A stretch of DNA of 24,000 bases from Candidatus Nomurabacteria bacterium (GTDB taxonomy: Bacteria > Patescibacteriota > Minisyncoccia > Phycocordibacterales > UBA9973): NCBI GenBank assembly GCA_020851595.1, contig JADZCK010000015.1:1047-25046 (forward strand), written 5' to 3'. The notes under the pieces were generated by a model. That model had not been told where the DNA came from. It searched no databases and was given only the letters and a program-made list of their open reading frames with translations. Shown piece by piece: positions 4,326 to 23,811 of this stretch. The position numbers and the translations under genes were made by a program. Every line of letters starts with the position of its first letter. Position 1 is the first letter of the stretch.

Positions 4326-4406
4326 CAAAAACACTTAATTTGTATTTACATTGACAAACGCTGAAAAAGATCTATTCTTATCAGAATGATGTTCTTTTAG
4401 AGAAAA

Positions 4407-4464
4407 TTCGCCTTAGTTTCTTGGAGTACAAAAGAAATTTTGTAAATTAAGAAACTGAGGCGAA
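4407..4464 (+). promoter_or_regulatory. Long 5'-UTR hairpin upstream of the 4491 ORF
   Basis: 16-bp outer stem ttcgccttagtttctt/aagaaactgaggcgaa, with one U-G pair that works only on the + strand. The inner 7-bp stem tacaaaa/ttttgta is capped by a GAAA tetraloop. A TTGACA box lies at 4352-4357 upstream. Confidence 0.55.
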
Positions 4465-4490
4465 CAAACGCCCAGTAGAAAGGATTCATT

Positions 4491-4949
4491 GTGGAACGAT
4501 ACAAGGAAGAAGAGGAAGAAGAGATAATCTTAAAAACTCTGTGCTCTGGTATCATCGGCCCGACCGATGGAAGTCTAATAATAAAACAGACATCGTGGGT
4601 GGTGGATAAATATCTTGAAAATCTTAAAGAGTCCACACCCACGGAAAAAACCGATGTAAGAATCGATACGAATGGAGGAGTACCTGCAACAATCTCTCTC
4701 ATATTCGGAGCCTATGAAAAAGATTTTCGTCAGATATGTCTGACACAGTCTCAGATTGTAGAACTGTGTATAGAGAAACCTTCGTTTATCATAAAAAACC
4801 TTCCTATTTTTACGGTGCTCCCCACAAAACAGAATGACTTTTCTGTGGTAAGCTTTACAATGAGTGCGGGTGGGGTATGGTTTTTCCGCTCAATATATTG
4901 GTGGTCATTTGAAGTGTTTCGCGATATCCACCTGTTGGTAAAGGCATAA
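4491..4949 (+). CDS. Hypothetical protein (152 aa, GTG start)
   Basis: Track ORF. AAAGGA lies 7-8 nt upstream of the GTG, and an intrinsic terminator follows. No family recognised. Confidence 0.5.
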   Translation: MERYKEEEEEEIILKTLCSGIIGPTDGSLIIKQTSWVVDKYLENLKESTPTEKTDVRIDTNGGVPATISLIFGAYEKDFRQICLTQSQIVELCIEKPSFIIKNLPIFTVLPTKQNDFSVVSFTMSAGGVWFFRSIYWWSFEVFRDIHLLVKA

Positions 4950-8048: not shown

Positions 8049-8060
8049 TTTGGAAAAATG

Positions 8061-8131
8061 TGCGGCCAGAGAGAATCGAACTCTCGTCTCATCCTTGGCA
8101 AGGACGTGTTCTACCACTAAACCATGACCGC
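8061..8131 (-). tRNA. tRNA-Gly (anticodon GCC)
   Basis: Manual cloverleaf: GCGGUCA acceptor, GUUU/GAAC D stem, CGUCC-UUGCCAA-GGAUG anticodon arm, GAGAG-UUCGAUU-CUCUC T arm, discriminator A. No encoded CCA. Confidence 0.9.
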
Positions 8132-8186
8132 GTTATTAAATTTTAATAAACTACATTGACTTATAATGGCCTTATTGACACGATAA

Positions 8187-8209
8187 ACCACTAAACCATG
8201 ACCGCGTTA
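8187..8209 (-). repeat. Duplicated 5' fragment of tRNA-Gly(GCC)
   Basis: The 23 nt accactaaaccatgaccgcgtta are identical to 8113-8135, which is the first 19 nt of the tRNA plus 4 nt of upstream flank. The two copies are 51 nt apart. Confidence 0.85.
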
Positions 8210-8333
8210 GTTAATATTAATTTTCTAACCGTTCAATTATAATATTTTATTTAATATAATGCAATTTATAATTTAATCCTTAAAAAACAATCATATTTTG
8301 ATAACAAGATAAAATAATGTATAATTTATAAAT

Positions 8334-8405
8334 GCACCCGTAGTGAAATGGATATCACAACAGTCTTCGGAACTGTCGTTGGGGGTTCGAATCCCTCCGG
8401 GTGCA
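8334..8405 (+). tRNA. tRNA-Arg (anticodon UCG)
   Basis: GCACCCG acceptor, GUGA/UCAC D stem, ACAGU-CUUCGGA-ACUGU anticodon arm, GGGGG-UUCGAAU-CCCUC T arm. An extended -10 (TGTATAAT) lies just upstream. No encoded CCA. Confidence 0.9.
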
Positions 8406-8659
8406 CACGAGAAAGCAAAATACCAACTACTCAGTAGTGTCCAATACAATTTACCTATACAGATTATAGTTTATGCACAATTATGTTAAATATGTGGATA
8501 ACTGTGTTGGTAATGTTTATAAAGGACACTTCTAATAACAGTCTTTTGGAGTCATTTTTGTAGATTATATGTTGTTAAATAAAGATATTTTAATAAAAGA
8601 CACTAAAATTAAGCTTATTGTTTCACGTGAAACTTTTTAATATATGTTACATATGAAAC

Positions 8660-9070
8660 ATGCCTAAAGTATTTACTTCTAAGACTCAAAAAACAGGAGA
8701 AATAGGAGAAAATATAGCTGTGAAGTTTCTCATGAAACAAGGTTTTTCGATATCAGATAGAAATTACACTAAAAAATGGGGAGAAATAGATATAATTGCT
8801 GAAAAAGGGGGAAAATTGCACTTTATAGAGGTAAAATCAGTATCAAAACCAAATTTAAACATTGTTACACATGAAACTCTTGATCAATACCACCCAGAGG
8901 ATAATATGCACCCCTGGAAGCTTAAAAGACTCTCAAGGACAATTCAAACTTATCTCTTGTCCAATAAGATTCCAGATGATAGGGCATGGCAAGTCGATCT
9001 AATGGTTGTTTTTCTTGATATCACCAGCAAAAAAGCAAGAATAAAAATAGTCAGCGATATTATTTTGTAA
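8660..9070 (+). CDS. YraN-family (UPF0102) endonuclease-like protein
   Basis: 136-aa ORF with GENIAVKFLMKQGFSISDRNY...GEIDIIAEKGGKLHFIEVKS. Confidence 0.8.
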   Translation: MPKVFTSKTQKTGEIGENIAVKFLMKQGFSISDRNYTKKWGEIDIIAEKGGKLHFIEVKSVSKPNLNIVTHETLDQYHPEDNMHPWKLKRLSRTIQTYLLSNKIPDDRAWQVDLMVVFLDITSKKARIKIVSDIIL

Positions 9071-9090
9071 AAAATAGTTTAATTTTTCTG

Positions 9091-9161
9091 TGCGGGATAC
9101 CGGAGTCGAACCGGTCACCACAGTTTGGAAAACTGTTATTTTACCGATAAACTAATCCCGC
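9091..9161 (-). tRNA. tRNA-Gly (anticodon UCC)
   Basis: GCGGGAU acceptor, ACAGU-UUUCCAA-ACUGU anticodon arm, ACCGG-UUCGACU-CCGGU T arm. No encoded CCA. Confidence 0.9.
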
Positions 9162-9165
9162 AATG

Positions 9166-9236
9166 TCGGGCTGCTGGGAGTCGAACCCAGCCTAAATGCT
9201 CCCAAAGCACTTGTACAACCGATATACTACAGCCCG
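9166..9236 (-). tRNA. tRNA-Pro (anticodon UGG)
   Basis: CGGGCUG acceptor with the C1:G72 pair typical of bacterial tRNA-Pro, AGUGC-UUUGGGA-GCAUU anticodon arm, CUGGG-UUCGACU-CCCAG T arm. Confidence 0.9.
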
Positions 9237-11604: not shown

Positions 11605-12357
11605 TTAAATCTGGCTCCAGAGAAATTCGTAAATATATTTATGCATTCTGTATATAATGGGATCTTCAATAATAACTCCAATCATTTTATTTGGCGATAA
11701 TGTAATATATGATATTTTATCATCATAGATCTGCATAATGCTTTCAAAAGATAGCGCATCTTGCTTCATAAATTTATTTTCTGTTATTTCTGAATGATAA
11801 TCTGTTAGAAGCTGCCTTGCCTCTGGCGTATCAATAAAAATTCCTTTTTTCTTTAATTTTAATTTTTCTCTTTTTGCAACATATTCTTTATTTATTTCAG
11901 GTATATATTTAAAAATTGCTTCAATATCAGAATACGCGTATATTTCAGTTTTTGAAGTCAACGTATCTGCCAATACTTTTTTAATTCCATCTTCCCCCTC
12001 AAAGAACTGAACATTGGGCTTACCAAGAATTAAATTATATTTTGAAGATAAAGATCCTATAGAACTTAGTAATATTTCTTTGTTCAACGCTATTTCTTTT
12101 TCTTTTCTTTCTATATTTGAAAGTAGCAGGCTCGGATGAGCAGGGGAGAATGTAGCCACAGTACCAATTCCTCCATTTTTAGACACCAAACCCATAGATT
12201 CCAGCTGTTCTAAGACTTTATAAATAAGCCCTCGTTTTATACCAGTCCATTTGGACAAGTCGCTAGCCCTTTGAGGCCCTTTATCTAGCAGAGCTTGATA
12301 GACGAGTGACTGTTCTTCTGATAAACCTGCTTGCATTAAAATATTTTCTTCTTGCAT
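11605..12357 (-). CDS. TrmB-family transcriptional regulator
   Basis: 250-aa ORF. The N-terminal winged HTH is LSEEQSLVYQALLDKGPQRASDLSKWTGIKRGLIYKVLEQLESMGLVS. It is divergent from the island promoter. Confidence 0.8.
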   Translation of the reverse strand: MQEENILMQAGLSEEQSLVYQALLDKGPQRASDLSKWTGIKRGLIYKVLEQLESMGLVSKNGGIGTVATFSPAHPSLLLSNIERKEKEIALNKEILLSSIGSLSSKYNLILGKPNVQFFEGEDGIKKVLADTLTSKTEIYAYSDIEAIFKYIPEINKEYVAKREKLKLKKKGIFIDTPEARQLLTDYHSEITENKFMKQDALSFESIMQIYDDKISYITLSPNKMIGVIIEDPIIYRMHKYIYEFLWSQI

Positions 12358-12468
12358 ACATAAAGCATATCATATTTGTTTTTGTCACACAAATATGACA
12401 AGGTAAATAACAAAATGTATTGTAAATAAAGGATATTTTACTATTTACAGAATCATATTTATGTTACA

Positions 12469-12497
12469 TTGACATTTTAATTTAATTATGCTATAGT
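12469..12497 (+). promoter_or_regulatory. Strong sigma70-type promoter of the GC-rich operon
   Basis: TTGACA (12469-12474), a 17-nt spacer ending in TG-c, then TATAGT (12492-12497). It is followed by a ~135-nt structured leader and the SD AAGGAGG (12626-12632). Confidence 0.7.
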
Positions 12498-12638
12498 ATC
12501 TGCAGAGTTAATAAGTTCATTGATAGCTAGCAAGTTAATTTTTTCCGAAGATTTTGTGGGTGGTATTGTGGATATGAGATATTTCGTATCTAAAATACCG
12601 TCTGCAAATGCAACGGAAAAATAAAAAGGAGGAACGTC

Positions 12639-13055
12639 ATGAGTTATAAGCTCGTCGACGGTTCCCGGGGCAAGGCGCCCCGATTCGCGATCACGATGGG
12701 ATTGCAGGAGGGCTACGGCCCGACTGCAAAAAAACACCAGGTTGACGAGGTCGTCGACCTCGTCGAGGCATTTCTCAAGGCGGCCGCAGCCGCCGGGCGC
12801 CCGTACCTTACGGGATCCGTGACCACCGGAGTAGTGGTCTACGCTTGGCCGGAAGGACCCGGTCAGGCTGGCGGGGGGCACGAGCCCCAGGCCACGTACA
12901 GCGGGGAAGTGAACCCGTTGTACAACTCGGGGATGGCTGAGGGAGCCATCGTCGAGTTTCTTAACTCCCTCGCCTCGGTTCTAGGGTCTGCACTCGGGCA
13001 GACTCGGGTCTATGTCGTCTTCGCGGGCGACATGTGGATCCTCCAGGCCGAGTAG
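12639..13055 (+). CDS. Island ORF1, hypothetical protein (138 aa), GC-rich
   Basis: ATG lies 6 nt after AAGGAGG. Third codon positions are strongly G/C-biased. No family recognised. Confidence 0.7.
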   Translation: MSYKLVDGSRGKAPRFAITMGLQEGYGPTAKKHQVDEVVDLVEAFLKAAAAAGRPYLTGSVTTGVVVYAWPEGPGQAGGGHEPQATYSGEVNPLYNSGMAEGAIVEFLNSLASVLGSALGQTRVYVVFAGDMWILQAE

Positions 13056-13130
13056 TCCTCGGCCACACCGACAGGAGAGACGGTGTAATTTCTCTCCAAT
13101 CGAAAAAGGGGATAAGACTTTTCAAGTCAC

Positions 13131-13184
13131 GTCCTCTCCATTTTTCAGACCACAAAGAAATTTGCTGTCTGAATGGATGGAGTT
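13131..13184 (+). repeat. Element A, copy 1 (54-nt hairpin)
   Basis: 52/54 identical to 13961-14014. It folds as CUCCAU/AUGGAG + UUCAGAC/GUCUGAA + CAAA-GAAA-UUUG. Both differences fall in the apical tetraloop. Confidence 0.85.
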
Positions 13185-13211
13185 TGTTTCCTTGAAAAAT
13201 AAATAAACATC

Positions 13212-13265
13212 GTTTCCAGCGCAGAGTTTCTAAATTAATTTTTGGAAATTGTGTGCTGGAAACAG
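13212..13265 (+). repeat. Element B, copy 1 (54-nt hairpin)
   Basis: 52/54 identical to 14958-15011. It forms a ~20-bp stem gtttccagcgcagagtttct/ggaaattgtgtgctggaaac with three G-U pairs that work only on the + strand. Both differences are in the loop. Confidence 0.85.
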
Positions 13266-13317
13266 CAAAAAAAAGCAACACAAACCCACCTAGAAGGTGC
13301 GGGTTGAAGGAGAAAAC

Positions 13318-13860
13318 ATGAACGAAACTTTTTTTCTTGCGGTCATTTTGGCCATCGCAGTTTCTTTCCTTCTGAGGATCGTCCTCGGCGGGAAAAAAAC
13401 GATGGACATGCCGACCAAGTGGGCTCCGATCCCAAATCCTCCCGAAACCGAGGAGGAAAAAAAGAGAAAGGAGGTGAAAAAGCTCTTCGAGTTGGCGGAC
13501 GATATCGCCAACTACTTCGGGTGCGTGCTCTCAAGCAAGTTCTATGGTTCACCCTGGGGGTATGTTCATACCTCCAGGTACGAGGTCGTGGTGGGGGGCA
13601 ACAAGTTTGCCCTCTACCACAATATGGGGAAGAGAATCTGTCTTCTCGCAACCGGGGGAGAGGTTGAGCTCGGGGAGCAGGAGCTCCTCGACTCAGGGGT
13701 CATTGGACCCTTGGTCGAAGCCCTTGAAAAAGAGCTCGCGGTCCTCACGGAGGACCGTGACAAAGAAAGAAAAGAAGAAGAAAGAAGAGAAGAAAGAAAA
13801 AAAGAGGAAGAAGAAAGGAGAAGGGCGACTTGTGCCCTTCTCCGGAAAACTTTTTTATAG
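13318..13860 (+). CDS. Island ORF2, hypothetical membrane-anchored protein (180 aa) with KE-rich C-terminus
   Basis: ATG at 13318 lies 5 nt after GAAGGAG; the track's GTG at 13297 has no SD. It has an N-terminal TM helix FFLAVILAIAVSFLLRIVLGG and the C-terminal run DRDKERKEEERREERKKEEEERRR. Confidence 0.7.
   Translation: MNETFFLAVILAIAVSFLLRIVLGGKKTMDMPTKWAPIPNPPETEEEKKRKEVKKLFELADDIANYFGCVLSSKFYGSPWGYVHTSRYEVVVGGNKFALYHNMGKRICLLATGGEVELGEQELLDSGVIGPLVEALEKELAVLTEDRDKERKEEERREERKKEEEERRRATCALLRKTFL
13817..13856 (+). terminator. Terminator-like hairpin embedded in the last codons of ORF2
   Basis: 10-bp stem ggagaagggc/gcccttctcc (13817-13826/13834-13843), then ggaaaac and T6 (13851-13856). 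The stop codon is at 13858. Confidence 0.5.
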
Positions 13861-13960
13861 ACAAAACTTCTCTTGCGTGCCGTGACCACGCAGGTTTCAA
13901 TTATCTAGTTGATGTTACGGATCAACTCACAACGAGAGGATAAAAAGCTTTCATGCCTAA

Positions 13961-14014
13961 GTCCTCTCCATTTTTCAGACCACAAAATAATTTGCTGTCT
14001 GAATGGATGGAGTT
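13961..14014 (+). repeat. Element A, copy 2
   Basis: See copy 1. Here the apical loop is AUAA instead of GAAA, and all stems are retained. Confidence 0.85.
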
Positions 14015-14024
14015 CTTTAAAAAA

Positions 14025-14077
14025 GTTGATTCTGGGAATTTGTACATAAAATTTGCGTGCATATTCCCGGAATCAAC
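14025..14077 (+). promoter_or_regulatory. Element C: 15-bp hairpin preceding ORF3
   Basis: gttgattctgggaat / attcccggaatcaac, with one U-G pair that is valid only on the + strand, and a 23-nt loop. It occupies the same slot as element B in the other spacers. Confidence 0.7.
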
Positions 14078-14161
14078 AAGATAGAAAGGAGAGAAATTAA
14101 CTGCGTTTTTGTTTGGAACTCAGGAGCTTGAGGGAAGAACATTTACGCAAAAAAAGAAAAA

Positions 14162-14692
14162 ATGAAAAAAGTTTTTTCTTTTGACGCAGAGACCAACGGT
14201 CTCTGGGGCCAGGCTTTTGCCATCGGCGCGCTCGTCTATGACGAGAATGGCGTCGAGATAGCTCGATTCGTCGGACGGCTTCCCGAAACGGAAGTCAAAG
14301 ACGAATGGGTGAGGGCGAATGTCCTGCCTCAGTTGACCGCAGTCCCGGTCACCCACACGGATTACGCATCCTTGTTGGCCGACTTTGCTAAGTTCTACTT
14401 GGCAAATAAAGCTGACGCGGATATCGTAGTTCACATGGGAGTTCCTGTCGAGAGCAAACTGCTCATCGACATGCACTCCAGTGGGCTGATCGGCGACTGG
14501 GATGGTCCCTATCCGCTCTGCGACGTCGCGGGCAATCTCCAGCAGGCTGGGGAAGACCCGACGTCCGTAGACGGATACGTGCGCAAGCACGGGCTCGAAG
14601 TGCCGGAATTTGGTACGACGCACAATCCGCTGTATGACAGCGCGGTTGCCGCCGTAGCTTATCGGCATCTCTTGAGCCGTCGGACCGTCTAA
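14162..14692 (+). CDS. Island ORF3, DEDDh-type (DnaQ-like) 3'-5' exonuclease (176 aa)
   Basis: Exo I motif FSFDAETNGL (D8, E10) and Exo III motif HNPLYDSAVAA (H-x4-D). It is small and single-domain. No SD is present, only an A-rich leader. Confidence 0.75.
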   Translation: MKKVFSFDAETNGLWGQAFAIGALVYDENGVEIARFVGRLPETEVKDEWVRANVLPQLTAVPVTHTDYASLLADFAKFYLANKADADIVVHMGVPVESKLLIDMHSSGLIGDWDGPYPLCDVAGNLQQAGEDPTSVDGYVRKHGLEVPEFGTTHNPLYDSAVAAVAYRHLLSRRTV

Positions 14693-14868
14693 CGGTCGAC
14701 GCGTCAATCACTGGACCAGCAGTAAACTGGGAAAGCTCTCGGTAGAGTTGTAATGGTGGATACTAGAGCAGAAATCTGCGGAAGCTACTCCGAGAAAGAC
14801 CGCCCACTAAGCTTTGCTTTTGTGCTTTGAACAAAAGTTAATCACGGGGCTTGTGCAAAACGAGCCCC

Positions 14869-14931
14869 AACCGTCCACAGATATGTGTCTGTGCTGATGA
14901 GTCCTACGTTTACACTCAGGACGAAACGGTT
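14869..14931 (+). ncRNA. Hammerhead self-cleaving ribozyme, type III
   Basis: AACCGUC|CACAGA-uaugug-UCUGUG-CUGAUGA-GUCCU-(12 nt)-AGGAC-GAA-ACGGUU. All invariant core nucleotides are present. Stems I and II are capped and stem III is open. Predicted cleavage is after C14875. Confidence 0.9.
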
Positions 14932-14957
14932 AAGTTCTTTAAAATAATAAATAAAAT

Positions 14958-15011
14958 GTTTCCAGCGCAGAGTTTCTAAATTTGTTTTTGGAAATTGTGT
15001 GCTGGAAACAG
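14958..15011 (+). repeat. Element B, copy 2
   Basis: See copy 1. It lies 26 nt downstream of the hammerhead and 53 nt upstream of the ORF4 SD. Confidence 0.85.
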
Positions 15012-15077
15012 TAGAAAGCCCGTAAATCCTGACTTTCTGTTTTTTACAGATAAGCAGGTGGGCAAAAGGGAGAAAAA

Positions 15078-15899
15078 ATGTTCAGGATCAGAGAAAAGTT
15101 TGTTTTTGACGAGTCAAGATGTCCCGCTCTTTACGAGTGGAAGTACCCCCACTCGTTCCTTGCCGGCACAATCGCCGGCTGGTCCATCTTCTATCTGAAG
15201 ACCGGGAGGAATGCGGGGAATCGAGCGTTGATTGCTCGGTCCCCTGAAGGACTTTGGGGCTGGGCCCCGAAGCTCCACGATAACGTCCTCCTTGCCCTCG
15301 GAGAGGAGCTGGAGAGTGTAAAAGGAACCCTCCGCCTTCTGGCCAATTGCCAGGAGGCAGAGAAGCTCTGGGACATCAAAGATGTCCCGGGGTTCTCCAG
15401 CACCGATTCTGATTCATTGACGTATCACCATGATAAGTGGTATACGTCATCGTTGGTGGCGGCACCGTTGCCGCCACCGTCCTGGGCACCTGATGCCCAG
15501 GCTTGGTCCATCCGCGAGGGCGTATACATCGCCTTCCCGGATGATTCGTTCCGACTCGCGCGTGGACGCGAGTATCACGGGTTCCCCTTTGAGGGGAAAC
15601 CGGTCGCCCGACAGGGTGACTGCCTGATCTTCAGCCAACCTGAGGGGTGGGAGGCTCCGGTCAACCCTCTCACCAAAAAGTTTGATCGGTGGCAGGACAT
15701 GCTGGTGTATGACGGCGAGTTCACACTCGACCGCCACCACTTCGAGCCCGTAGAGGGCACTCAGGAATGGGTTTTGACCCATCCTGAACACAAAACTCTA
15801 AGAGTCCAGGCTCCAGAGCCTGGGCTTGGCACTACGTTCTGGGCAGCCCTTGTGCCTGGAACGTCGCGACCTTTCGGCAGTGGAGAGAATCTGGATTAA
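15078..15899 (+). CDS. Island ORF4, hypothetical protein (273 aa), GC-rich
   Basis: ATG lies 5 nt after AAGGGAG. The first codons are AT-rich and the rest is GC-rich. No family recognised. Confidence 0.7.
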   Translation: MFRIREKFVFDESRCPALYEWKYPHSFLAGTIAGWSIFYLKTGRNAGNRALIARSPEGLWGWAPKLHDNVLLALGEELESVKGTLRLLANCQEAEKLWDIKDVPGFSSTDSDSLTYHHDKWYTSSLVAAPLPPPSWAPDAQAWSIREGVYIAFPDDSFRLARGREYHGFPFEGKPVARQGDCLIFSQPEGWEAPVNPLTKKFDRWQDMLVYDGEFTLDRHHFEPVEGTQEWVLTHPEHKTLRVQAPEPGLGTTFWAALVPGTSRPFGSGENLD

Positions 15900-15933
15900 A
15901 AACCAGAGATTCTTCACAAAAGGTTGAATCCAA

Positions 15934-15977
15934 TACCCCTCCGACCTAGGTCGGAGGGGTATTTTTGTTTCTTTTTT
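15934..15977 (+). terminator. Strong intrinsic terminator closing the island operon
   Basis: 12-bp stem tacccctccgac/gtcggaggggta around a ctag loop, followed by tttttgtttctttttt. Confidence 0.9.
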
Positions 15978-16005
15978 CATGTTTTTGTGCTATCATATGT
16001 GATAT

Positions 16006-16146
16006 ATGAAAAGTATTTTGCAGTTTTCAATTTCAAAAGGTGAGAAAAATTATATAGCCCAAGCGGTAGACTTTCCTATTTTTACTAAATCATCTATTTA
16101 TATTTCTGAAAAAGAATTAAAGGAATATTTCTATACTGAAAATTAA
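16006..16146 (+). CDS. Possible small ORF (46 aa), faint HicB-antitoxin-like N-terminal pattern
   Basis: MKSILQFSISKGEKNYIAQAVDFPIFTKSSIYISEKELKEYFYTEN. It has no clear SD and may be a gene remnant or non-coding. Confidence 0.25.
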   Translation: MKSILQFSISKGEKNYIAQAVDFPIFTKSSIYISEKELKEYFYTEN

Positions 16147-16159
16147 ATAAGCTTCTTTT

Positions 16160-17275
16160 TTAGTCTGCCCAAGAACGGTCAGCTCCGGGATTTTTGGCAC
16201 CATAAACTTCAAAGTGTAAGTGTGCACCGTTGCCACCTTTTGCAGCTCTGACGCGCCCGCTGTTCCCGACGTATCCTATCACTTCACCTTGAGAAACACT
16301 GGCTCCTGTAGATGTGGCTAGTTTAAACAAATGGCTATATAAAGTCTTTGTGCCATTTGGATGTTGAATAATAATCATATTTCCATAGGCTCCATTCCAA
16401 CCCATACGAGCGAGTAACACTGTACCGGATGCAGCAGCGTAAATAGGAGTACCAATAGGCGCAGCGAGATCTACGGCATTTTTACCGTGTAAACCTTGCG
16501 TCTTAATATATCCAGGAACTGGGTTTATAAAATACCCAGCAATATTTTTAAGAGAAGTTTTTGGATAATAATTTTTTGGTTTTGAAGTAGAACTAGTGTT
16601 TTCAGATGGACCGTCTACAGATATCTCGCCATCAGGGATGATGAGCTCGTCACCAACAGCAAGTGTTGCGTTTTCTGCCAAATCATTAAAATCAGCAATA
16701 TCTGTTATGTCCGCGTTGTATTTTTGAGCAATGCTTTTTAGAGTCTGGCCTTTAGTTACAATGTGTTTTACCCCAGAAACAGGCAAAATAATCAAAACCT
16801 GCCCTTCTTTTAAGGCATCTCCCTTTTTTATATCGTTCGCCCAAAGGATAGTGTTTACCGATACATCAAACATGTTTGCTATACCAGAAAATGAATCTCC
16901 TTTCCGTACAACATATACACTAATCTGATCGTAAGAAGAATCGGAATTTTTGGAAGTACCATCAGAAACTCCCAGGGGGCCGACAGAAGAAGAAAGAGCG
17001 CTATCCGCAACCACTTTGTCTGTATTATCATCTTTAACATCTATATCTTTATTCTTTTCATCTTTCTTTTCTAAAACTGACGCAGAAGAAACATTTGCCT
17101 GTAAAAGGGAAATGTTTTGAGAATTTGTCCCTGCTCTAGGAACCGCAGAGGTACTTGTATCAGTTTCTGCCTCTGCATGAGCCTGATCTCCTGTTCCAAA
17201 AAGAGAAGAAAGAAAACCAGCCTGCACCGAATGGGCGGGAACCAAAAGAGTCCCAAACAACAAGAAAAAGGACAA
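16160..17275 (-). CDS. Secreted LysM-domain M23 family metallopeptidase
   Basis: Two LysM repeats (YVVRKGDSFSGIANMF...ILP and HIVTKGQTLKSIAQKY...IIP) and a C-terminal M23 core (...GKNAVDLAAPIGTPIYAAASGTV...GYVGNSG...GAHLHFEV). The TTG start is uncertain: the frame stays open upstream and encodes KLKFKILRS, which would complete a signal-peptide n-region. Confidence 0.88.
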   Translation of the reverse strand: MSFFLLFGTLLVPAHSVQAGFLSSLFGTGDQAHAEAETDTSTSAVPRAGTNSQNISLLQANVSSASVLEKKDEKNKDIDVKDDNTDKVVADSALSSSVGPLGVSDGTSKNSDSSYDQISVYVVRKGDSFSGIANMFDVSVNTILWANDIKKGDALKEGQVLIILPVSGVKHIVTKGQTLKSIAQKYNADITDIADFNDLAENATLAVGDELIIPDGEISVDGPSENTSSTSKPKNYYPKTSLKNIAGYFINPVPGYIKTQGLHGKNAVDLAAPIGTPIYAAASGTVLLARMGWNGAYGNMIIIQHPNGTKTLYSHLFKLATSTGASVSQGEVIGYVGNSGRVRAAKGGNGAHLHFEVYGAKNPGADRSWAD

Positions 17276-17607: not shown

Positions 17608-17618
17608 ACTTGCACAAC

Positions 17619-19178
17619 ATGAAAGAAAAGTCTCCTGAAAATTATATTAATACTAGAAAAATAACCGACGAGGAGGCTTTGTATTTTGTAGAACACTTAA
17701 CAGAAGGACAGGAGATATTTAGTGGTAAAGAAAGGCTTGTTTTTGTTAAAAACATTTCAAATGGGAAAAAAGTCGTTTTGATTGACCCAGAACATTTAGA
17801 CAAAAATGGTAAGCCCCCAAAACATACCTTTTTAAAAGAAATACTCGTAGACATAATCAAACAAAACCCTATAAATATTCAAGATTTTGGAGCAACAGTC
17901 AAAAAAAGCGACCCAGAATTAGAAGAATTCAGAAAAGCTCAGAAAAAAGCAGTATTGTTGGAAAAGATAGGAAAAGAAGGCCTGCCTTTTATAGAAACAC
18001 TATCGGTAAGTGAAATAAAAGACAAAGACGTAGCCAAAAAAATAGCAGAGGTGAAGAAATTTGCAAAAATCGGGGAAGAGTCTCCTTACGGAAAATTGTC
18101 TATAAAAGAAATAAAAGAAAGAGCACTAAAAAATAAAGGGGGAAAAGTAAAAGCTCCGCAACAAATAGAAGCAAAAGAATCTTGGACAGAAAAAATATTA
18201 AAGAAGGTTGAAGAGAAAAGAAAAAAAGTTTTAGAAACATTTGTAAAAAAAAGTGGGTATTATGGAAAACTCGTACTTAAGGGAGCTACAGCTCTAGTAG
18301 CGTCTGTGGGTATTTTGCACGGAGAACTTGGAAGAAACACAGAAATATACACCTCTGCAAACACAAAAGTGGAAGAACCTGCGCCAAAACAAGAAACAGC
18401 AGAGGAAATATTAAAAAAAATAGAAGGACAGTTTGCAGAAAAAAATAATCGAGCAGAACAAATCAGAGAAGAATATGAAGAAAGAGAGGATTTTGCACAA
18501 AATGCTTTTAGAAAAGGAGAGGTGTCTGCAAAAGAAGCATTTGAAAATCCTATTTCGGGACAAACAGTAAAAAAAGAGGAAGGCTCGACAGAAGCCCCTG
18601 TATTTGAAACAGTTTACCCTTTGGAAATAAATCCAGAAAAAGATTTGGAGTTAAGAAAACAAGCAGAAGAGGAAGCAATAAAAGACTATTTAAAAAGTCT
18701 TGAGAACGGACAAACCGTAACAAACGAAACTAATGAAAAAGAAGAAGGAGTGCAAGAACTTTCTGCCCCAACACCCGAGCAAGTATATGAAGCAGAATCT
18801 ACCCCAACAAAAGTAGAAGAAGAAATCATTCCAGAACCTGAACCAGTTTCACCAAAAGAACAAGAAGAAATAAAACCAACACTGGTGGAATACCACCCCC
18901 TAACCCCCGAAACAATAAAAAATAAAGAAGATTTGATAAGTTACGTTTGCGAAAATGAATATGATCAAGAATTAAGATGGGGTCAATTGAAATATCTTAA
19001 GGCTGATGAAGTCATAAAACACAAAGGAATATCTAGTGTTGACCCAGCTTTTGAACGTTTGGCAAAATGTTTAAGAGAATTTAGAAAAAAAATAGGTGAA
19101 CCAAAAAGAAATTTATTGGGTATGCGTGATACCGTAGAGTCTTATGTTAACAAATGGATAAAATCTTTTAAAAAATAA
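17619..19178 (+). CDS. E/K-rich hypothetical membrane protein (519 aa)
   Basis: Track ORF trimmed to the first ATG. It has one hydrophobic segment, GKLVLKGATALVASVGILHG, and long low-complexity E/K/P stretches. Confidence 0.7.
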   Translation: MKEKSPENYINTRKITDEEALYFVEHLTEGQEIFSGKERLVFVKNISNGKKVVLIDPEHLDKNGKPPKHTFLKEILVDIIKQNPINIQDFGATVKKSDPELEEFRKAQKKAVLLEKIGKEGLPFIETLSVSEIKDKDVAKKIAEVKKFAKIGEESPYGKLSIKEIKERALKNKGGKVKAPQQIEAKESWTEKILKKVEEKRKKVLETFVKKSGYYGKLVLKGATALVASVGILHGELGRNTEIYTSANTKVEEPAPKQETAEEILKKIEGQFAEKNNRAEQIREEYEEREDFAQNAFRKGEVSAKEAFENPISGQTVKKEEGSTEAPVFETVYPLEINPEKDLELRKQAEEEAIKDYLKSLENGQTVTNETNEKEEGVQELSAPTPEQVYEAESTPTKVEEEIIPEPEPVSPKEQEEIKPTLVEYHPLTPETIKNKEDLISYVCENEYDQELRWGQLKYLKADEVIKHKGISSVDPAFERLAKCLREFRKKIGEPKRNLLGMRDTVESYVNKWIKSFKK

Positions 19179-19183
19179 TTTTC

Positions 19184-19423
19184 ATGAACAAAACAGGACA
19201 AAATACAGATGTTTCAGCACGTTTAAATAAATTAATATTTGAAGCGGTATTGATGCGTGTTTTGCCGATGCTCTCCGAAGAAAATCTTACAGAGTACGAA
19301 AAAATAATTGATTCAAAAGAAGTAGGCGAAGTGCTTTGGAATTTTTTAAAATCAAAAGTTCCGAATTTTGAAAATATAGTAAAAGAAGAGGAAGAAATTT
19401 TGAGAAAAGAATTGGAAAAATAA
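19184..19423 (+). CDS. Small helical protein (79 aa), resembles small proteins common in Patescibacteria (possibly DUF5663-like)
   Basis: The pattern LNKLIFEAVLMRVLPMLSEENLTEYEKII....EVLWNFLKSKVPNFENIVKEEEE resembles that family. The family name is from memory only. Confidence 0.6.
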   Translation: MNKTGQNTDVSARLNKLIFEAVLMRVLPMLSEENLTEYEKIIDSKEVGEVLWNFLKSKVPNFENIVKEEEEILRKELEK

Positions 19424-19485
19424 ACCGAAAAAGTTTGTTTAAATAGCGTTTAAAATTTAAAAGGGATATAATCTAAATAATTTAT

Positions 19486-20737
19486 ATGCCAAGAGAAACC
19501 TTAAAAATAATAGGGAGAAAAGTTCCCAAAAAAAAACACCGAGTTAAATGGTATCGTTTCTGATCAAAACAAAAACTCTTATAAAAAATCTCACAAAGAG
19601 AACTTTGATATTAGTATAAATAATCTAAAAAATAAATACCCATCAAGAAATATCCAGAAAACCAAAGAGAGCGTTGCTAAAAAAACAAAAAAAACTGTAG
19701 TAGAAAAACCAATTCCAGTAAAAATTGAAACACCTCCTCAAACTGAGGAAGAAATAGTAGACACTATCGTAGAACCTCGAGTTATAAAAGAAGAATTTAA
19801 CACACCTGAACCTATTACAGAAAACAGTGAAGACGTGTTTGGAATAGAGAACAAACCAATTGATTTAAAGGCACCTGACCAAGAAAATATTTTTGGCGTG
19901 GAACCCACACCAATAGTTAAAGAAGAAGATAATGTTGCAAAAAAAATAGCAGAAGTAAAAAAAAGACTTGCGGAGATAGAAAAATTAAAAGCAAAAAGTC
20001 TAAAAATACCAGAACCAGTAAACCTTGAACCAACCGAAAAACCTACAGAGTACGCACCAGCTGTTTCTGTGCCACCTTCGGTTTCCGAAGAAGCTCCTGC
20101 GCCCATAGAAAAAGAAAAAAATGAATTTGTTGTAGGACAAGTTGTAAAAATAAAAAGATCACCAAGCTCTGGTGGGCAAATTGAAGATGGTTGGATTGTC
20201 TCTGGTTTTACCGAAGATGGCAAGGTTATTGTCCGCGGAAAAACAATCGCAAAAGAAGGCGGAGTAAATGAATATCAACAAAGAACAGTGACACAAGAAA
20301 CACTTATTAATTGGCAAAAACTTGAAGCTGAAATAGATATAAGAGAAACAAACAATAAAGAGGAAGAGAGTTCTGAAAAGGATGATGTACTTAAGACAAT
20401 CGTAGGTGCAAGACACAGACTAGAAGATTTAGAGAAAGCAAAAAAAGCAGCATTGGATAAAATGGAGAAAGAAAAGAAAGAAGAGATGGTAAAAGCAACA
20501 CTAGAAATAGAAAGATTATCTCGAGAAAAAAGTGCTTTAGATAAAAAAATTTTTTTATTAAACACAGAATATCAAAAATTACAAAAAAGAAATGACTCTT
20601 TTTGGTCTAAAATAACCTTTGGAATATTTGTCGATGAAGAAAAAATGATGGAGCTTTCAGATGAAATAGCAACTCTAGAATCACAACAAAATACATTAAA
20701 AGAAGCGATAGAAAAAACGAGCAGATTATTAAATTAA
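19486..20737 (+). CDS. E/K/P-rich hypothetical protein whose frame is split at an A9 tract (19528-19536)
   Basis: ATG at 19486 (frame 1) gives MPRETLKIIGRKVPKKK..., stopping at 19561. Frame 2 is open from 19514 through 20737, that is 107 stop-free codons upstream of the track's GTG at 19835 in an AT-rich genome. The two frames overlap only around the A9 run. Confidence 0.55.
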
Positions 20738-20763
20738 TTAAATAATTAATTTACAGAAACAAT

Positions 20764-23700
20764 ATGACAATGGATCAACCACCAAAAAACGGAGAAGAAA
20801 TAAAAAACGAAAAAATTCTTTTAGAAATTGAAGAAACCTTGAAAATTATTGAGAAAGCGAAAGAAGAAGCTATTTGGCAATTGTCGCAAAGACAAGCAAT
20901 AATAAACCCTAATGACGAGGAAAGAATGGCAATAGCTGATTTTAAAGAACAAATAGAATTTTTTGAAAGAGAAAAAAGAAATCTAGAAAGAAGAAAAGCT
21001 GAAATTTTAAATACACAAAACGAAAGCCCCACACCAGAACCTGAAAAGCAACCACAAGAAGCAGAAAACCCCGAAGATGTTTTTGGGTTAGGGGAAGAAA
21101 CACCCGCTAATTTACAACCTGAATTAGAGATAGAACCTGAGTCTACTACTAAAATTTTACCAACAGAGACACCACAAGCTGTTGGAGAACAAACCCAACC
21201 AGAGCAAGAAAAACAACAAGAAAAAACAGAAGAATTAAAAGGTGAGATAAAAACATTTGTAGAAGAATTAAAACTAGAAGCCCTTTTGCCAAAAGAATTT
21301 AATAAGTTAACCGAAGCTCAACAAACAAAAGTAATACAAGATTTAAAACGTAGAATTGTCGACATTGTAAAATCAGATGCACAGACTCAGTATGCAGAAA
21401 AATTAAAAGATAGAGCTCTGTGGAATTCTGGAATACTAAAAATATTTGAATTTGTAGAAAAAGCACAAAATGCTTTATACAAAAAAGAAAAAGATTTACA
21501 AAATACAGAAAATGAAATTTTTACGAGATTTATAAAACAAAACAGAACAACTAATGAACTAATAAAACAAGATTTAGAAATACTAACAGCTAGAACAAAA
21601 GGAAGAGATGTGGTAGTAGAAAACGGAAAAGCTTATTTTAACTATTTTACAGGTAGCTCTGTGCTAATGGCAGGAGAACCAAATGTGCATAATTTTAACG
21701 AGAAAACTCATGGTTTTGTAAATATGCCTTATGAATGGGGACAAGAAAAGAGTGGTAAAAATAAAAAAACTTATGATAATGCAAAAAGAGAATACGAAGA
21801 AACGAGGAAAATAATACTAAAACAGGAAAATATAACACCAAAAGAAAAAGCAAGATTAACACAAAAAATGCTAGAAACAGACAACCTTGTAAAAATGGAA
21901 CAACTTTTGAATACTCATCCTGAGTTTGAAAAAGCTTTAAAAGATTTTGGAGAAAGTGCAAAAGGGCTAGAATTAATTAAAACTGGTAAAAAATTCTTGA
22001 AATCAATAACATTAGAACGAGAAAAACTTATGACTGCCAAAACAAAAACCAGATGGAGCACCAAAGCTGCAGCAATGTTTGTGGGTGGTACGATAGGAAC
22101 CACTATTACAGCTATAGCAGCGCCTGCTATCGGTGGAGTGGTTGGTTATTATAGAGGCAGAATGCGCGCAAAAGAAACTCTTACAGAAAGACAAATAAAA
22201 GCAAGACATGGAGAAAAAGACGAGAGCGAAGAAGCGACAAACACAGAAGACGTAGAAAAATTAAACAAAAGAATGGAAGGTATTTTGGAAGCTTTCGAAA
22301 AAGCTGGCACAGAAGAAGAAAAAGCAAAAAAACTTGATCAAATCAAAAGAAGAATAGAATATACCCAAAATAAAATAGAATCTAAACTTGTAAATTTTGG
22401 AGATTCTAAAAATGCGTTAAATAATCAATTTAATTTGGTAAACAATTTAAATAAAGCTTTGATAATTGCAGCTAGCTTAGAACAAACAACACGAAAAGAT
22501 ATAGATGCTAGACTAAAACAATTTCTTTCTTATAAAACAAAAAATATAAATGAGGTCCAAACTGTGTTTATTAAAAAGCAAGCAAGAAATAGCGCTCTGT
22601 TTGGGGCTGGATTTGCAACTGCTGGTTATATTGCGCGTTGGGCCGGAGAACATTTCGGCTGGTGGGAACGCACTGATAAAATAAAAACAGAAACACCAAA
22701 AATCACAAAAGAAGTAAAGCCAGAATTAGAGAAGACTGATAACTCTATAAAGCAAGAGATAATCCCTTCAAAAACACCAACGCCAAAACTCACACAGACT
22801 CCAAACCCAACAAATACACCAGAAATAAAGACCGTAGAAAAAATAAAACCTGAAGTACCCATAGAAAAAGAAATAGTAGCTCCGGTAGGAAAAGTAGCTG
22901 AAGTTTTTAAAGAGGAAAGTATTACTTTTAATAAAGGAAGTGGTGGTATTCAAGGAATAATTGACTTGAGGAGCCAAATAAAAAATCACTATAAAGGAGA
23001 TTATTCTGGTGCGCCACAAAGCGTACAGGAATTTATGAAAGAAAAGAATGTGATGAACTTGGCGAAAAAGCTTGGGTTCTTTGATCCTGATAGAAGAGAC
23101 GGAAAAGAGAGTGCTCTTATACAAGAAGGGTCGGTATTAAAATTTGACGAGAAGGGTAATCTTTTATTTGGAAAACCAGATGCGAATGGTAATGTTCCGG
23201 TATTAGAGAAATATCACGGAAAAATGTTTGATTCAGATCATAACGCAACAGCAAGTGAAAACACAGAAATAGCAGAACAAAATAATACAAAAACACATAC
23301 AATTGGATTAAAAGAAGAAACCTTCCCAACAAAAGAAGGACATCTAAACCCAGGAACAGCAGAAAATATATACGCTCCAAAAAAACATTCATTGGGAACA
23401 GGGGAAGAAAAATCATTTTTTGCTGATAAAATTGAAAAAATAAAAAATTTAAAAGAACAAATAGAAGCAAACATAGACGCAGAACGAACGGAAGGGTTGT
23501 CAGTTGATGAAAACTTAACTCCGACCGACAATTCAATTAATGAAACTTATAATAATACTATAAATAGCATTTTTCGAGAAAGCAAAAATGGAAACTGGGC
23601 GACAATAAGAGATGTGGGAACAAACCACTTTCTTCATAGTAATAATTATAATGAAGAAAATTATATAAATCTTAAAAATTATATAAATAAACTAATAGAA

Positions 23701-23811
23701 ACAACACACCAGAAACCCAAAAACGGAATATTTGGGTTTCTAGCTGAAACAAACGAAGAATATATAAAAAGGGCGATAAAATATGCCACTGAACACAATA
23801 TTGAAATGTAA
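20764..23811 (+). CDS. Large E/K-rich membrane protein (1015 aa)
   Basis: Coiled-coil-like N-terminal part. Hydrophobic segments are AAAMFVGGTIGTTITAIAAPAIGGVVGYY and ALFGAGFATAGYIARWAG. No family recognised. Confidence 0.75.
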   Translation: MTMDQPPKNGEEIKNEKILLEIEETLKIIEKAKEEAIWQLSQRQAIINPNDEERMAIADFKEQIEFFEREKRNLERRKAEILNTQNESPTPEPEKQPQEAENPEDVFGLGEETPANLQPELEIEPESTTKILPTETPQAVGEQTQPEQEKQQEKTEELKGEIKTFVEELKLEALLPKEFNKLTEAQQTKVIQDLKRRIVDIVKSDAQTQYAEKLKDRALWNSGILKIFEFVEKAQNALYKKEKDLQNTENEIFTRFIKQNRTTNELIKQDLEILTARTKGRDVVVENGKAYFNYFTGSSVLMAGEPNVHNFNEKTHGFVNMPYEWGQEKSGKNKKTYDNAKREYEETRKIILKQENITPKEKARLTQKMLETDNLVKMEQLLNTHPEFEKALKDFGESAKGLELIKTGKKFLKSITLEREKLMTAKTKTRWSTKAAAMFVGGTIGTTITAIAAPAIGGVVGYYRGRMRAKETLTERQIKARHGEKDESEEATNTEDVEKLNKRMEGILEAFEKAGTEEEKAKKLDQIKRRIEYTQNKIESKLVNFGDSKNALNNQFNLVNNLNKALIIAASLEQTTRKDIDARLKQFLSYKTKNINEVQTVFIKKQARNSALFGAGFATAGYIARWAGEHFGWWERTDKIKTETPKITKEVKPELEKTDNSIKQEIIPSKTPTPKLTQTPNPTNTPEIKTVEKIKPEVPIEKEIVAPVGKVAEVFKEESITFNKGSGGIQGIIDLRSQIKNHYKGDYSGAPQSVQEFMKEKNVMNLAKKLGFFDPDRRDGKESALIQEGSVLKFDEKGNLLFGKPDANGNVPVLEKYHGKMFDSDHNATASENTEIAEQNNTKTHTIGLKEETFPTKEGHLNPGTAENIYAPKKHSLGTGEEKSFFADKIEKIKNLKEQIEANIDAERTEGLSVDENLTPTDNSINETYNNTINSIFRESKNGNWATIRDVGTNHFLHSNNYNEENYINLKNYINKLIETTHQKPKNGIFGFLAETNEEYIKRAIKYATEHNIEM

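Follow-up and report, generated by a model that had tools for sequence, protein, structure and literature searches.

Integrons join a platform promoter to co-oriented, promoterless cassettes, with imperfect-palindrome boundaries that are uniform within an array and with hypervariable content. The early operon of the phages T3 and T7 starts with host-type promoters followed by an anti-restriction gene, and its intergenic hairpins are cut by RNase III to give stable monocistronic mRNAs; the first gene of the T3 operon encodes an S-adenosylmethionine (SAM) lyase. Here we describe a region that resembles both in part and lies at positions 12469–15977 of a stretch of 24,000 nucleotides (nt), hereafter called the window (contig JADZCK010000015.1 of assembly GCA_020851595.1, positions 1,047 to 25,046, forward strand), from a Candidatus Nomurabacteria bacterium. 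The region holds four GC-rich open reading frames (ORF1–ORF4) beside the divergent gene of a TrmBL2-like regulator. With moderate confidence, we read it as one case of a recurrent locus type of the Candidate Phyla Radiation (CPR, Patescibacteria), in which a regulator anchors a hypervariable array of exchanged GC-rich conflict-gene cassettes whose transcript would be cut into separate mRNAs.

Like an integron, this locus type has a platform promoter, co-oriented cassettes without a strong internal promoter, boundary repeats that are uniform within an array and variable content, but no IntI lies beside any of the loci, attC core motifs are missing, and the boundaries include ribozymes and translation leaders. 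In T3, the SAM lyase has an anti-restriction role (PMC12255297). Compared with the T3/T7 early operon, the locus is not part of a phage genome, its genes vary, and a self-cleaving ribozyme would replace or supplement the RNase III sites. Type III hammerhead ribozymes of prophages flank genes or short blocks of varying identity, the anti-restriction gene ardA among them, and long transcripts are cut there into gene-length pieces in vitro (PMC3088659). As in these blocks, hammerheads are found here between individual variable genes; they sit, however, on a fixed CPR chromosomal platform with a dedicated regulator and promoter, they alternate with non-ribozyme hairpin modules, the cargo shows a strong GC offset, and neither an integrase nor a prophage is nearby.

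Operons of anti-CRISPR and anti-CRISPR-associated genes (acr–aca; PMC7648647, PMC13551039) likewise combine a strong promoter and an adjacent helix-turn-helix (HTH) regulator with small, quickly exchanged genes, and the cargo of our locus family includes known or proposed enzymes directed against type III CRISPR systems (the B116/AcrIII-1 fold and SAM-AMP lyase). In contrast to acr–aca operons, the regulator is a divergently encoded, TrmBL2-like winged HTH protein of host composition that is conserved on the chromosome and not carried by a mobile genetic element, the arrays are longer and bear RNA punctuation, and the anti-defence role is a presumed one. The family cargo also matches models of the off-switch enzymes of type III CRISPR systems (Csx3/Crn3, Csx16, Csx20, Crn2/B116, NrN and SAM-AMP lyase; PMC12255297), and ORF1 shares the lyase fold and perhaps, in a register that may be off by one residue, a Glu/Gln pair. 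Unlike those enzymes, several degraders are stacked here in variable arrays with no cas10 or effector complex nearby; in the window, ORF1 is truncated and ORF3 is predicted to be of DEDDh instead of DHH type. None of the known systems that we compared combines a TrmBL2-type chromosomal anchor with a promoter and operator that are conserved, with cargo of offset GC content and with punctuation by ribozymes and hairpins. Our literature coverage was incomplete; we came upon no account of such loci, which does not show that none exists.

Results and Discussion

The constant part of the locus is a platform consisting of the regulator gene and its control region, which in the window comprises the following features.

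11605–12357, − strand: gene of the TrmBL2-like winged HTH regulator, the constant anchor of the locus type
12370–12401: overlapping palindromes (TCATATTTGT/ACAAATATGA and TTGTCA-N8-TGACAA), the probable operator
12469–12497, + strand: platform promoter TTGACA-17-TGcTATAGT with an extended −10 TG, 11 of 12 positions matched

The regulator matches Pfam TrmB (PF01978, E 4e-13, 49 bits), its profile (A5) aligns over residues 9–251, the full length, with TrmBL2 (5box/5bpd, E 5e-6), and its HTH also matches Csa3/CasR models. In ten genome loci (L002, L004, L009–L011, L014, L015, L025, L032 and L035), a homologue stands in divergent orientation upstream of a relative of ORF1 or ORF3. An alignment search yielded 437 metagenomic relatives, the best-scoring 80 of which were fetched with their loci. 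The control region of about 150 nt (12358–12520) is 61–80 % identical in approximately 40 of these 80, and the motifs TTGTCA-N8-TGACAA and TTGACA-N17-TGnTATAnT are nearly invariant over the related loci. Its best-conserved block across some 27 aligned loci, kept in L032 and L035 as well, is 12370–12401, the probable operator, to which the regulator would bind. The promoter is the only strong match in 12300–16200, in agreement with the single AT-rich consensus promoter reported in an initial annotation of the region. That annotation had taken it for a host-style signal wired onto foreign genes. As it is conserved together with TrmB in dozens of genomes that carry other cargo, the promoter belongs instead to the platform and is not an adaptation of imported genes, and the neighbouring regulator is therefore regarded as the anchor of the locus.

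Further observations concern the platforms of the related loci. After the platform promoter, about 50 of the 80 TrmB loci carry a conserved leader RNA of approximately 200 nt or more (e.g. L043:3786–4045(−), L049:2474–2733(−), L100:1836–2095(−) and L103:6567–6826(−)), which begins with AAGTTCATT and contains the invariant block GAGGAGAGAGU. Covariation seems to be present in a helix of the type xxxCAC/GTGxxx (e.g. TGTTTAC/GTAAACG and TCTTCAC/GTGAAGA), and variable hairpins are inserted whose lengths are not multiples of three. The leader has no Rfam match, RNAalifold returned no consensus structure from the gappy alignment of the related loci, and an automated helix search was noisy; it may represent a new structured RNA that controls the arrays. 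The window and L035 lack it and have short leaders. In L065, L068, L092 and L107, a second, more divergent TrmB-like paralogue (22–40 % identity) is found a few kb away.

Behind the platform promoter follow the four cassettes, for which GC content and GC content at third codon positions (GC3) were computed per ORF.

12639–13055, + strand: ORF1 (cassette 1), GC 0.63, GC3 0.76; SAM/SAM-AMP lyase-like PII-fold protein with an in-frame TAG, the frame running on to 13088
13318–13860, + strand: ORF2 (cassette 2), GC 0.51, GC3 0.61; putative coding sequence with an N-terminal transmembrane helix, a KE-rich tail and a strong Shine–Dalgarno (SD) site
14162–14692, + strand: ORF3 (cassette 3), GC 0.56, GC3 0.66; predicted DEDDh-fold 3′–5′ exonuclease
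15078–15899, + strand: ORF4 (cassette 4), GC 0.57, GC3 0.65; phage-linked protein with invariant WAPDA, RQGD, HPEH and PGTSRPF motifs

The GC3 of this block (12639–15899) amounts to 0.61–0.76, against 0.19–0.40 in the 19 other ORFs of the window and a host value of about 0.27. In bins of 300 nt, the GC content rises from 0.28 (12301–12600) to 0.62 (12601–12900) at the left border and is down to 0.33 at 15901–16200 on the right. A GC-rich block of four ORFs with GC-rich third positions had been described before and is borne out by these values, as are the AT-rich first eight or so codons (GC of the opening 24 nt 0.46, 0.33, 0.21 and 0.33 for ORF1–4, against 0.51–0.64 in the remainder) and the unusually long spacers of 262, 301 and 385 nt (GC 0.38–0.43), compared with a median intergenic length of 40 nt for the host in the window. 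The block is flanked by chromosomal genes of host composition (S15, CCA-adding enzyme, tRNAs, ZIP and LysM/M23; SpoU in L035 and L051). Biased gene conversion, or another process that acts on the DNA of the whole region, is disfavoured as the sole cause of the offset because the spacers stay at a GC of 0.38–0.43 and it is mainly the third codon positions that are raised. A housekeeping operon with expression-linked codon bias was rejected in view of a GC3 offset that is far too large and a variable gene content.

The GC offset recurs at the platform in other genomes. In 35 of 43 low-GC loci (background GC3 below 0.5), the four ORFs nearest to the platform include one on the + strand whose GC3 surpasses the background by 0.15 or more. 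Within 3.5 kb of the platform, 47 % of the + strand ORFs are enriched to this degree, compared with 3 % on the other side of TrmB (Mann–Whitney p 5e-21). The GC3 of ORF3 relatives lies above the host median in 26 of 28 loci, with a mean offset of +0.21 and a slope against host GC3 of 0.5 (r 0.48). This pattern agrees with a pool of mobile, GC-rich genes whose composition moves part of the way towards that of the host, and selection for GC-rich coding sequences is also possible. The high-GC donor proposed initially, taken as a single source, is not consistent with an enrichment that recurs at the platform over dozens of genomes.

What stands beside the platform changes from locus to locus. The enriched ORFs of the 80 loci together with ORF1–4 (81 sequences) fell into 52 clusters, 33 of them singletons, as counted on crude calls of the greedy longest ORF in GC-rich DNA that gives spurious ORFs. 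L035 and L051 share TrmB (76 %) and the downstream SpoU (78 %) and differ in their cassettes. L035, the closest relative, holds only the ORF3 cassette of the window's four, which is delimited by two features.

13872–13894, + strand: weak terminator-like hairpin from the terminator scan, at the left edge of the ORF3 cassette (homology to L035 begins at 13874)
14693–14847, + strand: ORF3 trailer, which moves with the cassette; 94 % identical to L035 5210–5363, without significant structure (folding z-score −0.2)

Between the breakpoints at 13874 and 14847, the ORF3 coding sequence is 97 % identical to that of L035 at the nucleotide level and its non-coding flanks 90–94 %, against 75.6 % for the adjacent TrmB coding sequence, which indicates that the ORF3 cassette and its flanks have probably been exchanged laterally in recent times. 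The horizontal acquisition of compositionally foreign genes suggested in the initial annotation is thereby supported. The self-contained four-gene system that it also suggested is contradicted by the metagenome and genome loci: ORF1–4 were not found together elsewhere, loci with relatives of ORF1 or ORF3 never hold the other three, and ORF2 has no homologue.

Homologues of ORF3 (59–70 % identity) were also seen in bins labelled as non-CPR, namely a Pacearchaeota archaeon (L020, which carries two type III hammerheads), Clostridium sp. CAG:921 (L028) and Gammaproteobacteria (L021). Taxonomic labels of metagenome-assembled genomes are unreliable, and these are either mis-binned CPR contigs or a sign that the family has reached DPANN archaea and further lineages.

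Two of the four products can be named from their predicted structures. The ORF1 family comprises 103 homologue clusters. Its AlphaFold2 model (predicted local distance difference test, pLDDT, 96) shows a ferredoxin-like β-α-β-β-α-β fold, for which Foldseek returned the phage SAM lyase Svi3-3 (6zm9/6znb, E 2.5e-5, template-modelling (TM) score 0.66–0.72) as top match and the SAM-AMP lyase of type III CRISPR (9gab) at E 9e-4; searched against PDB sequences, the family profile matches 9gad/9lqd over its full length (E 0.005). In the HMMER alignment, whose register may be off by one residue, the invariant Q121 corresponds to Q108 of the C. botulinum enzyme, and E71/E72 of the latter to H81/E82. 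The invariant Q121 and the nearly invariant E82 hence fall on or beside Q108 and E71, which are the only two residues common to the phage SAM lyase and the SAM-AMP lyase, E71 being catalytic in the C. botulinum enzyme (PMC12255297). As judged from the model, ORF1 is a lyase-like protein of the SAM/SAM-AMP lyase fold, and the 138-aa soluble protein that had been considered unrecognisable becomes assignable. At the position of the ORF1 TAG homologues have Glu, and SSATPTGETV continues in frame to a TAA (13053–13088). The TAG is also present in L001, an independent Logan assembly (SRR11294022), and serves as an ordinary stop in three other host genes of the window; it could be a nonsense mutation of very recent date, be subject to stop-codon read-through or mark a pseudogene.

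The family of ORF3 counts at least 740 homologue clusters (57–98 % identity), mostly of Patescibacteria and from many CPR lineages. No Pfam, NCBIfam, PADLOC or PDB sequence match was obtained, an hhalign comparison with E. coli Orn was negative, and what remained was a weak match to phrog_2259 in 25 of 27 members and a single Rv2179c-like match at E 0.24. The fold is named via structure prediction only: the AlphaFold2 model (pLDDT 93) retrieves RNase T, RNase AS/Rv2179c, ExoX, Pol III epsilon and DexA (E 2.5e-5 to 1e-3, TM score 0.55–0.69) and also phage exoribonucleases. D8, E10, E97, H154 and D159 are invariant, and the Exo II position, placed by alignment and not by superposition, is apparently the invariant E97 instead of an Asp. 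The model thus supports ORF3 as a DEDDh-fold exonuclease with predicted activity; its initial assignment as such stands, and its rank as the only recognisable product does not, with ORF1 being recognisable too. The exact ORF3 sequence of the window is absent among the database matches listed, the best of which shows 98 % identity.

For ORF2, an exhaustive HMMER search in 1.84 billion representative proteins found only ORF2 itself, and no Pfam, PHROG, NCBIfam or IMG/VR match was obtained, so that the 180-aa membrane-anchored protein is as unmatched as first described. ORF4 has ten distant homologues (31–37 % identity) and no Pfam or PDB sequence match. Its homologue P0002 occurs on contigs of GC 0.62 beside HNH, DnaB, Dam-like and Phage_zn_bind_8 genes, one relative lies on an IMG/VR contig, and ORF3 relatives are found on IMG/VR contigs as well, in line with the earlier suggestion of phage as a possible source. 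ORF3 (14162–14190) and ORF4 (15078–15113) both begin with M-K/F-x-x-F-x-F-D and share the nucleotide string AAAGTTTnTTnTTTTGACG; F-x-F-D is invariant in both of these otherwise unrelated families, which may be due to chance or to an N-terminal module common to the two.

A scan of 65 unselected GC3-enriched ORFs of the sister loci gave the following recognisable cargo.

Csx3-AAA and other Csx3 models: up to 4 members, best E 1e-58
DHH_CorA (NrN-type SAM-AMP hydrolase family): 3 members, best E 1e-41
Csx20: 3 members
bpMoxR: 3 members
Csx16: 2 members
STIV_B116-like (AcrIII-1/Crn2 fold): 2 members
SAVED/SAVED-TM: 2 members
E1-E2: 1 member

The annotated minority of this cargo is almost wholly conflict-related. 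When the families of ORF1 and ORF3 are counted in, the dominant recognisable activity is predicted to be the degradation of nucleotide-based immune messengers or of SAM, and the role in defence or anti-defence that had been listed as a candidate is plausible. Within the retrieved flanks of 6–7 kb, no cas10, cyclase or complete known system was present.

The long spacers of the window carry a series of RNA elements, which are listed here with their folding z-scores against shuffled controls and, where given, the minimum free energy (MFE).

12540–12621, + strand: long 5′-leader hairpin directly 5′ of the ORF1 SD site; MFE −42.4 kcal/mol for 12500–12638, z −5.4
13131–13184, + strand: first copy of element A, a bulged hairpin with some 15 bp, z −2.8
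13212–13264, + strand: element B copy 1, imperfect hairpin of 23 bp, MFE −32.4, z −8.9
13282–13317, + strand: ORF2 leader hairpin with SD site (GAAGGAG), 91–94 % identical to L035 4143–4187
13961–14014, + strand: element A copy 2, 96 % identical to copy 1, z −4.2
14027–14075, + strand: hairpin C, MFE −24.9, z −6.3
14846–14868 and 14868–14932, + strand: GC hairpin and type III hammerhead, predicted cleavage after C14875
14957–15010, + strand: element B copy 2, z −9.3
15932–15973, + strand: intrinsic terminator closing the array, perfect stem of 14–16 bp (15932–15963) followed by a T-run, z −5.4

The hammerhead core is complete, with CUGAUGAG at 14894–14901, CGAAAC at 14921–14926 and GUC at 14873–14875. 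The MFE fold and the Rfam alignment agree on a three-way junction with an open stem III of 6 bp, a stem I hairpin of 7 bp and a stem II hairpin of 5 bp (z −4.3). We read 14868–14932 as a complete type III hammerhead for which self-cleavage is predicted; a hammerhead ribozyme in the spacers had been noted before. The module of GC hairpin and hammerhead recurs with 89 % identity in L051, where it stands between unrelated cassettes. Element A is found in L035 (98 %) and in L051, there with two compensatory base-pair changes; element B, a candidate double-strand RNase site or 3′-end protector, has no copy in the other loci compared, and hairpin C is missing from the otherwise homologous spacer of L035. 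Overall, the repeated elements and hairpins of the window reach z-scores of −2.8 to −9.3, and the view of spacers packed with conserved hairpins holds for the strong folding. It does not hold for the conservation, which for A and B is restricted to close relatives, the repeats differing from locus to locus. Elements A, B and C belong to no Rfam family beyond chance matches to miRNA hairpin models, and the scan found no twister, pistol, hatchet or other ribozyme class. At gathering threshold, Rfam reports nothing in the window and in 26 related loci but tRNAs, a fragment of an rRNA and a single DUF805b match; the hammerheads surfaced only by E-value thresholds or by a regular expression. The DUF805b motif (L026 1366–1400; 51 bits, which exceeds its gathering score) directly precedes an ORF3 homologue.

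Strong SD sites precede ORF1 (AAGGAGG), ORF2 (GAAGGAG) and ORF4 (AAGGGAG), the three that had been recognised at the outset, and ORF3 has none close to its ATG. A terminator at the end of the block was likewise found as described, with a stem of 14–16 bp instead of the 12 bp reported. In L035, a different hairpin takes the position of the ORF1 leader hairpin, and the counterpart of the ORF2 leader hairpin and SD site precedes an unrelated 86-aa ORF. Window 13282–13326 and L035 4143–4187 thus show an identical scheme of leader hairpin, SD site and first codons (ATGAAC) before two unrelated ORFs, and in L049 a block of SD, ATG and AAAAGG is repeated before three cassettes. Because leader, SD site and first codons are shared in front of unrelated ORFs, the exchange junctions would appear to fall a few codons into the coding sequence.

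Type III hammerheads and repeated hairpins also punctuate the related arrays. A regular expression found hammerhead copies, partly confirmed by Rfam, beside ORF1 or ORF3 relatives in nine genome loci. The metagenome loci hold 11 distinct type III hammerheads, all on the island strand and 0.7–6 kb from the TrmB start, a region that makes up 22 % of the strand-bases searched (P ~7e-8); Rfam confirms 5 of the 11 (E 3e-5 to 2e-4). In nearly all multi-cassette islands, repeats peculiar to the island, most of which form hairpins, recur at the spacing of the cassettes, with locus-specific repeats seen in L051, L088, L081, L049, L042, L004 and L011. Since modules in the window's lineage are common to genomes whose ORFs differ, the punctuation appears to be a lineage-level 'grammar' and the ORFs its exchangeable content. 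The cassette-end repeat of L051 (+ strand, 630–677, 1869–1916 and 2558–2585) consists of a small hairpin and, after it, GAAAGGGTTAGGGTTAA with two TTAGGG units; it stands once behind each of three cassettes, in the last case directly 5′ of the terminator. The boundary repeats of L088, L081, L049, L042, L004 and L011 are unrelated to it.

The platform and the GC offset, a fixed site at which the cargo turns over, the folds of the ORF1 and ORF3 models, hammerheads that are present with a strand bias and repeats particular to each locus are taken as shown, and from them we propose the following course. The TrmBL2-like regulator would control the single platform promoter, from which the array would be transcribed as one RNA up to the terminal terminator. 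Cleavage by the hammerhead after C14875 would leave a 5′-OH on the ORF4 mRNA and a 2′,3′-cyclic phosphate on the ORF3 mRNA, the long AU-rich hairpins A, B and C could act as double-strand RNase sites and/or end protectors like the RNase III sites of T3/T7, and hairpin-capped monocistronic mRNAs would result. The cargo would act in biological conflict by destroying immune signals or cofactors (cyclic oligoadenylates, SAM-AMP and SAM), and we consider it probable that destruction of such nucleotide-based signals or cofactors is its main role. The degraders may act on the cell's own signalling, for selfish mobile elements or on the immunity of a host cell. The punctuation modules might provide portable homology or boundaries for cassette exchange, homologous recombination between shared modules being the simplest reading of that exchange.

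Several findings weigh against this picture. Activity can be assigned tentatively to only two of the four products of the window, and about three quarters of the cargo families, those of ORF2, ORF4 and ORF3 included, have no assigned function, and most cargo proteins are unannotated; some of the annotated cargo (SAVED-TM, E1-E2, MoxR-VWA and helicases) is effector-like and not degrader-like. The ORF1 stop (TAG, 13053–13055) precedes the nearly invariant TPTGETV tail of the 147-aa homologues (WILQAE-stop-SSATPTGETV-stop). The hammerhead scores 41.4 bits (E 8e-7) against Rfam Hammerhead_3 and does not reach the gathering score of 48.5, as larger loops cost score, and elements A and B are confined to the closest relatives, BLAST searches of distant loci with the spacers having found neither of them conserved. 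No recombinase or exchange machinery is linked to the loci. Among the 43 low-GC platforms, 8 are without GC-enriched neighbours. The best 80 of 437 loci were taken, which biases the sample in favour of relatives of the window's TrmB, and the cluster counts may be inflated because of the crude ORF calls and spurious ORFs.

The competing explanation that survives best, and which we consider possible although rather unlikely, is an ordinary CPR defence island, whose cassettes would provide the cell itself with antiviral effectors, sensors and off-switches and whose GC offset would result from frequent import. SAVED-TM, E1-E2 (Cap2-like), MoxR-VWA, helicase and ResIII domains in the cargo and the position as a chromosomal hotspot between conserved genes are what one would see in such an island, and defence hotspots are well known in bacteria (PMC10250203). 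The flanks, however, are free of cas10, cyclases and complete known systems, as stated above, the recognisable cargo is dominated by signal degraders that are normally single accessory genes of type III CRISPR loci, and hammerhead punctuation and a shared platform promoter are foreign to described defence hotspots. In addition, CPR rarely encode CRISPR-Cas (PMC6509639).

A more far-reaching version of the array of exchanged conflict-gene cassettes, which we regard as unlikely though worth stating, is that CPR episymbionts, and perhaps DPANN, keep an integrase-less, ribozyme-punctuated anti-immune arsenal that is switched by the TrmBL2-like regulator and quenches type III CRISPR or CBASS-type signalling of their host cells, the modules serving both mRNA processing and as exchange boundaries. 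This arsenal may consist of ring nucleases, SAM-AMP and SAM lyases, NrN-like hydrolases and DEDDh nucleases, and may quench signals in the manner of phage acr genes. Besides the rarity of CRISPR-Cas in CPR genomes, background for it is given in a passage of PMC12612501 citing Esser et al. 2023, according to which hosts carry many CRISPR spacers against an episymbiont genome.

We judge an integron-like capture platform to be less likely still, in which the boundary hairpins are DNA sites analogous to attC for an unlinked recombinase and the promoter takes the role of Pc. Such a platform would agree with co-oriented cassettes in which no promoters of their own were detected, with boundary repeats that are uniform within and different between loci, with the hypervariable cargo and with homology breakpoints that coincide with boundary elements. 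It is opposed by the lack of a tyrosine recombinase beside some 110 related loci, the only integrase-like gene of the window being of XerC/D type and 10 kb off (1927–2856), and by a search for attC cores (RYYYAAC-N35–125-GTTRRRY) on both strands of the island that gave no match, so that a classical integron was rejected. Several boundary modules are moreover ribozymes or SD-bearing leaders, which indicates a function at the RNA level.

That the block is a single self-contained four-gene system or the remnant of a prophage or mobile element, acquired once from a high-GC donor and then given host-type signals, we regard as very improbable. The GC3 far above the host value, the one promoter and one terminator, the ORF4 relatives on phage-like contigs of GC 0.62 and the IMG/VR contigs with ORF3 and ORF4 relatives would suit such an origin. 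It is largely refuted by the absent linkage of ORF1–4, and it is opposed by the lack of any homologue of ORF2, by L035 retaining the ORF3 cassette alone and by a promoter and operator kept with TrmB across dozens of genomes holding other cargo. No integrase, att site or structural gene was found in or beside the island, and a prophage or integrated element was rejected, as att repeats and replication genes were likewise not found inside the block. An assembly chimera or binning contamination, by which high-GC DNA was fused to a low-GC contig, would explain the abrupt GC change at each border but is practically excluded by L001, which is 100 % identical over 11952–13165 across the left border, by the same low/high/low-GC layout between TrmB and SpoU in L035 and L051 and by the AT-rich, host-like spacers within the island.

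Gene calling in these islands deserves a separate remark. ORF1 and ORF4 carry the NCBI tags IT399_00805 and IT399_00820; an exact look-up of ORF4 returned no called gene, yet an identical NCBI entry exists. GC-rich cassettes yield long spurious antisense ORFs, as in the window at 14120–14707 (−) and 12486–12881 (−) and in L035 at 4151–4660 (−), and the public gene call of L035 took the antisense ORF and passed over two small + strand ORFs that are real. Gene annotation in such islands cannot be relied on, with ORFs missed and antisense ones called. Elsewhere in the window we noted a DUF559 endonuclease-like gene, an NYN-domain gene and the XerC/D-type recombinase at 265–2856, four tRNA genes at 8060–9236 and, at 17610–23811, three large + strand ORFs (522, 300 and 1015 aa) with no Pfam match, in a region of strongly positive AT skew (0.3–0.47).

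Conclusion

CPR make up a large share of bacterial diversity and are mostly obligate epibionts with tiny genomes, the majority without CRISPR-Cas. If the region is, as we consider probable, a regulator-anchored array of exchanged conflict-gene cassettes, CPR would keep a conserved and regulated locus for quickly changing imported genes, and with it an unexplored layer of conflict with phages, mobile elements or host cells. What bacterial hammerheads do in biology is a question of long standing, for which the punctuation of these arrays may provide a tractable and recurrent context. With about three quarters of its cargo families lacking an assigned function, the locus type would also be useful for the discovery of genes through guilt by association.

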